DNA from: Thermoplasmata archaeon | Lineage (GTDB): Archaea; Thermoplasmatota; SW-10-69-26; JACQPN01; JAJPHT01 | Assembly: GCA_034667685.1 (NCBI GenBank) | Contig: JAXDQU010000008.1 | Location: forward strand, 1 to 64,000 | Direction of reading: 5' to 3' | DNA: 64,000 nucleotides | Shown: in pieces, positions 26,528 through 27,654 of the stretch | Layout: each line of letters opens with the position of its first letter | Numbering within the stretch: the stretch's first letter is position 1 | Made by a program: the position numbers and the translations under genes | Notes under the pieces: model-generated | Seen by the model: the letters and a program-made list of their open reading frames with translations, nothing else | What the model was told of the DNA's origin: nothing | Database searches by the model: none

Positions 26528-26548
26528 GAAGGGCGCTCCCACGCGCCG

Positions 26549-26611
26549 GGGCTCGGGGCTCTGGACTCGGGGCTCCGGAGCCCCGAGTCCTGAGTCCAGA
26601 GCCCCGAGCCC
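26549..26611. repeat. Palindromic REP-like repeat, copy 1 (copy 2 at 33967)
   Basis: gggctcggggctctggactc ... gagtccagagccccgagccc. Confidence 0.85.
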
Positions 26612-26658
26612 AAGCGCCCGGCGATGCCTTCATGATGCAATCCCCGTCTCGCCGCGCC

Positions 26659-27138
26659 ATGCAGAGCCCCGGCCACAGCAGCGAGTTCGAGACGGTGGAC
26701 CCCGCGCCCCTGGCGCCCGAGACCACCGTGCCGGAGCTGGAGGCGCGGCTCTTCGACACCAGGCTCAGCATGTTCCAGCGCTATCGCGCGCTCTTCTCGC
26801 TGCGGCACGTGGGGACCGAGGACGCGATCCGCGTGATCGCCCGGGCGATGTTCGAGGACGAGAGCGCGCTGGTGCGCCACGAGGCGGCCTACGTGCTCGG
26901 GCAGCTCCAGGGCGCGAAGGCGATCCCGTTCCTCGCGCGCCAGCTGGAGGAGGACCCCTCGCCGATGGTGCGCCACGAGGCGGCCGAGGCGCTGGGCAAC
27001 ATGTGGGACCAGACGGAGAAGGTCATCCCGATCCTGGAGAAGGCGCGCCAGCACGACCCGGCGCGCGAGGTGCGCGAGAGCTGCGAGGTGGCGCTCGACA
27101 ACATCGCGTACCTGAAGGACCCGACCCAGTTCGACTGA
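26659..27138 (+). CDS. HEAT-repeat protein resembling one half of deoxyhypusine hydroxylase (DOHH)
   Basis: VDPAP, RYRALFSLR, SALVRHEAAYVLGQ, PMVRHEAAEALG, VRESCEVALD. Confidence 0.75.
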   Translation: MQSPGHSSEFETVDPAPLAPETTVPELEARLFDTRLSMFQRYRALFSLRHVGTEDAIRVIARAMFEDESALVRHEAAYVLGQLQGAKAIPFLARQLEEDPSPMVRHEAAEALGNMWDQTEKVIPILEKARQHDPAREVRESCEVALDNIAYLKDPTQFD

Positions 27139-27186
27139 TACTCTCTAACGAGAAACGAAAAGCGGCGCGCGCCCGTCGAAGCGCGC

Positions 27187-27654
27187 ATGATGGGACGCCC
27201 CCTCCTCGTCATGCTGGCGCTCGCCGCGCTCCCCCTCGCCACGGCCGCGCCGCCCGAGGTGTACGCCGGCGAGGGGCCGCTCCACGGCAAGGCGTACTTC
27301 GACCCGCAGCTCACGTACGACGTCGCCTACACAGAGCCGGGCTCGACGGGCTGCGTCGCCCCGGTCTACCTCCAGTGCATCGTGGAGGGGCAGGTCACCG
27401 ACATCAAGTGGATCCGCATCGACATCGAGGGCAAGGGGAGCGCGGACTTCTTCGCCGACGCCGGCGCCAACACGCCCACCCTCGCCTACGGCTCGTGCGC
27501 CTCCACGCTGACCTACGCGATGTGCATCTTCCCGCTCCGGCACGAGACGTGGGGCAATCTCCGCATGGTCGTCGACTCCACCAACGGCCAGGCGGGCACC
27601 GTCATCTCCGTCTACGCGGAGTCGGGCGCGACGCTCTTCGGGCAGATGCTGTAG
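27187..27654 (+). CDS. Secreted hypothetical protein
   Basis: Signal peptide ending ATA, 4 Cys, host-like codons. Confidence 0.65.
   Translation: MMGRPLLVMLALAALPLATAAPPEVYAGEGPLHGKAYFDPQLTYDVAYTEPGSTGCVAPVYLQCIVEGQVTDIKWIRIDIEGKGSADFFADAGANTPTLAYGSCASTLTYAMCIFPLRHETWGNLRMVVDSTNGQAGTVISVYAESGATLFGQML

Follow-up and report, generated by a model that had tools for sequence, protein, structure and literature searches.

The closest described relative of the gene treated here is the eukaryotic deoxyhypusine hydroxylase (DOHH; EC 1.14.99.29; human PDB entry 4D4Z; yeast Lia1), the human form of which has H56, H89, E90, H207, H240 and E241 as its iron ligands, according to the ligand description in PMC3306375. 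For archaea, a DOHH orthologue is reported as not found in the relevant passages of papers from 2012 (PMC3306375), 2016 (PMC5178350), 2018 (PMC6105217) and 2021 (PMC8153317), and the same passages treat as open whether, and by which route, archaea hydroxylate deoxyhypusine. In the section concerned of PMC5178350, Euryarchaeota including thermoplasmales are described as containing deoxyhypusine and little or no hypusine, and several Crenarchaea as containing hypusine. The available portion of a 2026 review (PMC12856214) names no archaeal hydroxylase, and our own full-text literature search, with most subscription journals and supplements outside its coverage, returned no paper describing an archaeal half-size DOHH-like protein; two papers that mention the relevant terms together do so in unrelated connections. 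In this study we analysed a stretch of 64,000 nucleotides (the window; positions 1 to 64,000 of the forward strand of contig JAXDQU010000008.1, assembly GCA_034667685.1) from a Thermoplasmata archaeon, which carries a gene for a half-length DOHH-like protein. The initial annotation, made from the letters of the window, had proposed a single-half DOHH and had stated that no archaeal DOHH is established; the four papers agree on the latter, and the former interpretation is supported in silico by our analysis. The half-size protein would be the first archaeal DOHH candidate. Automatic names exist already, as JGI labels some short proteins 'deoxyhypusine monooxygenase', NCBI titles one 'HEAT repeat domain-containing protein [Euryarchaeota archaeon]', and the ESM Atlas holds clusters named 'Putative deoxyhypusine monooxygenase' that are 100% Archaea.

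The gene and the parts of it that matter most for the comparison with DOHH are the following:

26632-27138, forward strand: half-length DOHH-like gene, taken from the open reading frame (ORF) list, with its stop codon at 27136-27138
26695-26709, forward strand: codons of V22-D23-P24-A25-P26 (168-residue numbering), the conserved N-terminal VDPAP arm, with D and P invariant and V, A and P nearly so among 100 archaeal sequences
26878-26883, forward strand: first His-Glu motif, H83-E84 in the 168-residue form and H74-E75 in the 159-residue form, invariant in 100 of 100 sequences
26974-26979, forward strand: second His-Glu motif, inside PMVRHEAAEALG, H115-E116 in the 168-residue form and H106-E107 in the 159-residue form, invariant in 100 of 100 sequences

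The encoded protein has 168 amino acids (aa) when read from the ATG at 26632 and 159 aa when read from the in-frame ATG at 26659, and either may be the start, because the N-terminus varies among relatives; residues H74, M103, H106, E107, E110 and G113 are numbered here in the 159-aa form. The translation contains ETVDPAPLAPE, RYRALFSLR, SALVRHEAAYVLGQ, PMVRHEAAEALG and VRESCEVALD, and thus all of the motif strings quoted in the initial annotation. Its description of a HEAT protein of about 160 aa with two His-Glu motifs spaced by 32 residues was likewise borne out by the ORF list and the translation.

A phmmer search against all PDB chain sequences placed human DOHH (4d4z) at the top with E = 1.6e-53, followed by synthetic alphaRep proteins (from E = 1.8e-31), and both halves of the human enzyme were matched, the N-half (chain positions 9-138) at 87 bits and the C-half (148-284) at 98 bits. 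In 5.8 billion proteins, the best named matches after the archaeal proteins of about 160 aa were eukaryotic DOHHs, with 41-54% identity. The AlphaFold2 model, built on an alignment of 100 archaeal sequences, is all-helical with a mean pLDDT of 93.1 and has four HEAT hairpins, made of eight long helices plus short terminal ones. When this model was compared with the PDB by Foldseek, 4d4z_A was again ranked first (E 1.7e-9, TMq 0.79, root-mean-square deviation 2.4, 46% identity, 144 columns), with alphaRep proteins second (E 1.7e-4). The motifs that the initial annotation had listed for the C-terminal half of DOHH all occur in the 4d4z_A alignment (as SVDPAPPA, RYRAMFALR, SALFRHE, PMVRHE and VRESCEVALD), and the archaeal VDPAP arm aligns with SVDPAPP of 4d4z, which is the inter-domain linker preceding the C-terminal half of eukaryotic DOHH.

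From the same alignment it can be seen that the first archaeal His-Glu pair corresponds to human H56-E57 and H207-E208, and the second to H89-E90 and H240-E241 (human residue numbers are the chain index minus 5, an offset counted from the 4d4z alignment). H74, H106 and E107 are the equivalents of the human iron ligands and are invariant in 100 of 100 archaeal sequences, although these share merely 42-89% identity with the window's protein. Among the archaeal sequences E75 and G81, which stand beside the iron-ligand positions, are also conserved, and they would have a role in binding the deoxyhypusine substrate. Pfam gives generic families for the half-length protein (HEAT_2 at 4e-21, HEAT_PBS and HEAT) and nothing more specific. 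For phylogenetic analysis, trees were built from 38 archaeal sequences and from the N- and C-halves of 27 eukaryotic DOHHs, chosen for diversity from the named matches, and one of the trees had 12 of the 14 extracted generic HEAT segments as outgroup (P0376 and P0250 were left out for poor scores); in it the archaeal halves and the eukaryotic N- and C-halves form one clade against the 12 generic segments (SH-aLRT 99, stem 2.45). The grouping with DOHH halves and not with generic HEAT/PBS-lyase proteins, on which the initial annotation had staked its proposal, is therefore obtained from the profile, phmmer and tree results alike. The half-length protein is a true DOHH homologue, with the DOHH fold and the conserved ligand residues.

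A DOHH in one chain has eight repeats and four His-Glu motifs, and a chain of the half-length protein has one domain, four repeats and two motifs; the four-motif definition is most likely reached by a predicted homodimer. Exactly one DOHH-half copy is present in the window's genome, and therefore no second half is available for a heterodimer; with two motifs per chain and no second half in the genome, a homodimer would be the sole route to four His-Glu motifs. For the dimer prediction, two 159-aa copies and two Fe were used with a 98-row alignment, in three runs and with three controls. The homodimer reached ipSAE values of 0.90, 0.91 and 0.89 against 0.00 for the best of the 3 controls, and in the calibration the mark was reached by 20 of 30 proteins solved as pairs and by 1 of 23 solved as single chains. 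The partner has a pLDDT of at least 90, and at least 79% of the contacts are common to the runs. In the model each chain contributes H74, M103, H106, E110 and G113 to the interface, with contacts 103-103 and 106-103 crossing the axis; residues 5-18, which form the N-terminal arm, and the C-terminal residues 158-159 are part of it too. The two His-Glu motifs of each chain are placed at this interface in the predicted homodimer (0.90 vs 0.00). The predicted interface is also a conserved surface, as 25 of the 48 invariant or nearly invariant columns fall within the 50 interface residues of the 159 (one-sided Fisher p = 2.9e-4).

On the basis of sequence comparison and modelling, we consider it likely, with a probability of roughly two in three, that the gene encodes a homodimeric di-iron DOHH acting on deoxyhypusyl-aIF5A. 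Each subunit would be one four-HEAT-repeat domain of about 160 aa, bearing the VDPAP arm at its N-terminus and two His-Glu motifs on the concave side, and two chains would assemble into a two-fold symmetric homodimer that mimics the pseudo-symmetric two-domain eukaryotic enzyme of about 300 aa. His, His and Glu of each chain would bind one iron, giving a di-iron centre at the dimer interface, which with O2 would convert the deoxyhypusine placed by deoxyhypusine synthase (DHS) on the lysine of aIF5A (TSKPGKHGASK loop) into hypusine. In this scheme dimerisation is inferred from the model, and we also infer that the protein binds iron, acts with O2 and has aIF5A as its substrate.

The host genome contains aIF5A and dys, the latter in two copies, as the proposal of an archaeal hypusination enzyme had presumed. 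The aIF5A gene (G000:C39:21095-21472, where G000 is the window's genome) scored 160 bits with TIGR00037 (cut-off 75.45), and it carries the target-lysine loop TSKPGKHGASK (TSKPGKHGASKARI); PF01287 was unfit for this search, as it gave no match in the genome and matched only 3 control archaea, and TIGR00037 was used instead. The two DHS genes were recognised by PF01916 (336 and 283 bits):

G000:C12:49778-50644 (L001:1492-2448), reverse strand: DHS paralogue, 319 aa, with the SWGK lysine motif
G000:C2:4029-4922 (L002:1411-2574), reverse strand: DHS paralogue, 388 aa, with the SWGK lysine motif

The two paralogues are 26% identical to each other. The longer one has orthologues of at least 53% identity in every one of the 20 other genomes sampled from the class, and more distant ones of 39-52% identity in several other families; our guess is that it could be homospermidine-synthase-like. 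Regarding the aerobic context, a haem-copper oxidase is present in 13 of 14 gene-bearing relatives and the gene in 1 of 19 oxidase-lacking genomes, which is what an O2-dependent enzyme predicts, but this co-occurrence is not an independent test, because the genomes are kin.

The assembly to which the window belongs (3.48 Mb on 124 contigs, completeness 99%, contamination 1.29%, 71% G+C) also encodes an archaeal-type primase small subunit. PF02461 (CuMMO) had no match in it, which carries no information, as the controls were not matched either. The 120 matches listed from 5.8 billion clustered proteins comprise 62 with lengths of 134-192 aa and 58 with about 260-294 aa. The short relatives P0001-P0058 are 70-97% identical to the query and P0084, P0100, P0107 and P0109 59-62%, and the named proteins of about 260-294 aa are eukaryotic DOHHs with 41-50% identity. 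A separate search among proteins of 295-2000 aa gave no fused archaeal form among its named matches, all of which are eukaryotic DOHH. Relatives are encoded at 402 loci according to a pattern scan that covered 185,579 species genomes, and the results given here cover the best 80 of the 402; all of these trace to Thermoplasmatota-type contigs, with 78 titled archaeal (Thermoplasmatota, Poseidoniales, Poseidoniaceae, Thalassarchaeaceae, 'Euryarchaeota' or 'Methanobacteriota') and 2 bacterial. The two bacterial titles look mislabelled: L015 (JAJPHT010000023.1) and L092 (JAOMAZ010000001.1) are titled Proteobacteria/Deltaproteobacteria, and the former has a profile score equal to that of locus L004 of the same-genus genome G003, and the latter carries primase PriS and a Poseidoniales gene order.

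In all 92 loci examined (L003-L094) the gene is one ORF with a single DOHH-half domain of about 154-187 aa, one of them cut by a contig end, and after dropping genomes fetched twice there were 82 distinct sequences besides the window's. With a threshold of E <= 1e-20, the gene was found in 107 of 401 sampled Thermoplasmatota genomes. It is common in Poseidoniales-type families (f28 51/58, f30 18/19, f11 22/36), occurs in families of the window's own class (f1 6/8, f2 1/1, f3 3/3, f5 1/1, f6 2/6), and at the same threshold was found in none of the sampled genomes of f7 (0/14), f8 (0/48), f18 (0/53), f20 (0/24), f23 (0/9) and f25 (0/10). All 4 other genomes of the window's genus carry it. In a viral contig collection, 36 pattern matches yielded 0 confirmed relatives, and the top 150 listed in a large profile search were mostly full-length DOHH and giant HEAT proteins, a listing that says nothing on how far the half-size form extends outside Thermoplasmatota. 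The half-size gene is a conserved form and no fragment. A copy in a Poseidoniales-type genome (G266:C122:4341-4784, E 2.7e-22) has two in-frame stops (1 TAG, 1 TAA) and may be a pseudogene.

Since the closest named full-length relatives are all eukaryotic, and 2 of the best 80 related records bear bacterial titles, one could suspect an artefact, in which the gene is either eukaryotic contamination or the remnant of a full-length gene, truncated or decayed to a pseudogene, that was wrongly binned with archaeal contigs. We find this barely credible: the gene sits inside a 64-kb archaeal contig beside ClC channel, polyprenyl synthase and RNase J-like genes, the contamination of the assembly is 1.29%, all 92 of the 92 loci have a complete ORF of about 160 aa that possesses a start and a stop of its own, the gene is present in each of the 4 other genomes of the genus, the archaeal sequences fall outside the crown clades of both eukaryotic halves, and the two bacterial-titled records (L092, L015) show archaeal context or score. 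A second explanation would be a HEAT-repeat protein without catalytic function, serving as a scaffold or for binding like the PBS-lyase, CpcE/NblB or YibA proteins, whose resemblance to DOHH would go no further. For this speak the generic HEAT families given by Pfam, the NCBI title of relatives ('HEAT repeat domain-containing protein') and the similar-sized generic HEAT clusters that the ESM Atlas holds for other archaeal phyla. It is nevertheless improbable, as the NCBIfam lyase and NblB models gave 15-25 bits with cut-offs of 220-600 (NblB 24.5/300, CpcF 19.6/220, CpcE 15.5/330, CpeY 15.9/600; none reached), the stem of 2.45 parts the generic segments from the DOHH-type clade, the His-Glu metal-ligand pairs are invariant over 100 sequences with as little as 42% and up to 89% identity to the window's protein, and DOHH tops both the sequence and the structure searches. 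The ESM Atlas clusters in question consist of HEAT-repeat proteins of 164-170 aa from Bathyarchaeota and Nitrososphaerota, with a language-model feature score of 0.96.

A catalytic protein could also act on something else, and a DOHH-like di-iron oxygenase, probably dimeric, with a different substrate (a menaquinone or respiratory step in Poseidoniales, another aminoalkylated lysine, or a free polyamine) has to be weighed together with the points that count against a hypusine-forming enzyme. The gene is directly preceded, in 61 loci of Poseidoniales, by an MqnD-like gene (PF02621, E 5.8e-63) that shares its strand and reading frame (e.g., the MqnD-like gene L032:5038-5958 ends a few codons before the DOHH-half gene L032:5971-6456), and MqnA-like genes, radical-SAM MqnC/E-like genes and primase PriS are nearby in the Poseidoniales loci (L028-L094); this operon-like adjacency hints at another role. 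The 92 loci examined have neither DHS paralogue nor aIF5A in the vicinity of the gene, and the second DHS paralogue (DHS2), considered as a co-evolving partner of the gene, was rejected, as its orthologues occur with and without it. The gene is missing from 9 of 22 oxidase-bearing relatives and is therefore dispensable for aerobic life in the group, and yeast is stated to tolerate DOHH loss in the passage concerned of PMC5178350. Crenarchaeal hypusine is left unexplained, because the best 80 of the 402 loci are all Thermoplasmatota-type, and the dimer score may owe its height to likeness with DOHH, whose two domains are a solved structure, a possibility of which the prediction tool warns.

However, the MqnD arrangement occurs in 0 of 27 non-Poseidoniales loci, the Mqn genes of the window's genome are on other contigs (C79 and C25), and PF02621 is missing from 5 of 14 gene-bearing relatives, including one genome at 100% completeness (G006). 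Menaquinone linkage as the primary function was rejected as the leading explanation and retained as an alternative, being confined to Poseidoniales, with the Mqn genes elsewhere or missing in other carriers; the futalosine route is not known to need an O2-dependent hydroxylation, which we also count against a menaquinone role. Together with the 41-54% identity to eukaryotic DOHH halves and the conservation of E75 and G81 beside the iron ligands, this makes a different substrate rather unlikely in our view, although it is the main rival, and a homodimeric DOHH of aIF5A is the explanation that we retain.

As for the origin of the half-size form, the eukaryotic C-halves are monophyletic with no archaeal sequence inside (support 96, 88 and 92 in three trees), and the eukaryotic N-halves are monophyletic (92) when two long-branched plant N-halves are left out. 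These two, from Cuscuta (P0113) and Genlisea (P0080), sit on a branch of about 2.0 changes per column and fall inside an archaeal clade in two trees, with their C-halves behaving normally, and we read their placement as long-branch attraction; the exclusion was decided after viewing the tree and was applied to later trees, including that of the approximately unbiased (AU) test. A free quick tree search split the archaea into a Poseidoniales clade and a second clade holding the window, and a tree with all 38 archaeal sequences together had a log-likelihood 30 units higher and was not rejected (p-AU 0.82). The trees support three groups (archaeal, eukaryotic-N and eukaryotic-C) that meet at the centre without resolved branching, and a recent transfer from a crown eukaryote is therefore ruled out. 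Rooting with the generic HEAT outgroup was tried and set aside, as the DOHH clade came out with a basal polytomy and the outgroup with very long branches of 1.9-5.2, from which no polarity is readable. All 27 C-halves outscore their N-halves against the archaeal profile, largely because of the VDPAP segment, which the N-halves lack. In the columns diagnostic for N- and C-halves, the archaea match N at 4, C at 2 and neither at 1, which is too few to separate the scenarios and is taken here as saying that the archaea are not nested in crown C.

A tentative view, possible although we would not bet on it, is that the proteins of about 160 aa are living representatives of a pre-duplication, homodimeric DOHH, that a tandem duplication of such a gene, followed by fusion, produced the eukaryotic enzyme, and that aerobic Poseidoniales-type archaea make true hypusine with an O2-dependent di-iron enzyme. 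The tree with a single archaeal clade outside both eukaryotic half-clades (p-AU 0.82) permits this view. In such a history the free VDPAP arm of one subunit would have become the inter-domain linker. The C-terminus of one chain adjoins the N-terminal arm of the other in the homodimer model, and the predicted geometry would suit a duplication and fusion that turned the arm into the eukaryotic linker. The evidence is equally compatible with an ancient transfer in which a stem eukaryote donated a piece resembling the C-half. The initial annotation had offered either a relative of the pre-duplication ancestor or a eukaryote-derived transfer; of the latter, the trees remove the recent crown-eukaryote version, and the pre-duplication relative and the stem-eukaryote transfer both fit.

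The neighbours of the gene in the window are a divergent ClC channel gene, a gene for a small protein without assigned function, a polyprenyl synthase gene and an RNase J-like gene. Just downstream, at 27187-27654 on the forward strand, there is an ORF of 155 aa that matches no Pfam family and whose N-terminus (MMGRPLLVMLALAALPLATAAPPE) is hydrophobic and signal-like. Upstream there is one further feature:

26543-26617, no strand assigned: G+C-rich palindrome between the divergent ClC channel and DOHH-half genes, with 36-nt arms that are 86% complementary

A 16-mer from the core of this palindrome is present 26 times in the genome, spread over 22 contigs, and the palindrome is therefore a dispersed element similar to repetitive extragenic palindromic (REP) sequences and probably not specific to the DOHH-half gene. 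A sigma-70 promoter scan gave no match, the consensus being one that is not applicable to archaea. In one soil metatranscriptome run (0.05 of the words), a 151-nt contig matches positions 26996-27140, at the 3' end of the DOHH-half gene, apart from 4 differing letters and 2 gaps, and the rest of the gene had no coverage in this run; the contig may be DNA carry-over or come from a relative, and it is no evidence of expression.

Archaea that are among the most abundant in the plankton thus have a homologue of DOHH, which provides a concrete candidate for archaeal deoxyhypusine hydroxylation. Hypusine is predicted in the lineages that carry it; cultured Euryarchaeota assayed so far have mostly deoxyhypusine, according to PMC5178350. 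From the half-size form one would expect a symmetric homodimer in which each chain has one iron, a simpler system for studying peroxo-di-iron chemistry. A peroxo-di-iron(III) species is reported for human DOHH. The half-size form may also show how the pseudo-symmetric eukaryotic enzyme arose. If the pre-duplication view is true, hypusine hydroxylation is no eukaryotic invention.

Among known systems, EpmC (YfcM) of E. coli, the hydroxylase of beta-lysyl-EF-P, is a functional analogue, as it carries out the last hydroxylation of an extended lysine on a factor of the EF-P/IF5A family; its fold and family are unrelated to DOHH, and its pathway is bacterial. The bifunctional DHS/DOHH of Trichomonas vaginalis and the hydroxylating activity of Sulfolobus, in the account that the section concerned of PMC6105217 gives of them, are likewise proposed routes to hypusine without a canonical DOHH, but there DHS itself or an unidentified enzyme would do the work, whereas Thermoplasmatota have a true DOHH homologue. 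The HEAT-like PBS-lyase proteins (CpcE/CpcF, NblB, E. coli YibA, MTH187 and the alphaRep template) share the repeat type and the HEAT_2/HEAT_PBS families with the half-length protein and are its next-best matches by sequence and structure, but the generic HEAT segments of the outgroup have no conserved His-Glu pairs at the aligned positions and form a clade separate from the DOHH type. With eukaryotic DOHH the archaeal protein shares the HEAT-repeat fold and 41-54% identity to either half, the His-Glu iron-ligand motifs in equivalent repeats, the VDPAP segment, the C-terminal ESCEVALD helix, and a host genome that also encodes the substrate protein and DHS. The eukaryotic enzyme differs in being two fused domains of about 300 aa with four His-Glu motifs and a di-iron site within one chain, whereas the archaeal protein is one four-repeat domain of about 160 aa with two motifs, which would need the predicted dimer for such a site, and where the eukaryotic enzyme has an internal linker the archaeal one has a free N-terminal arm.

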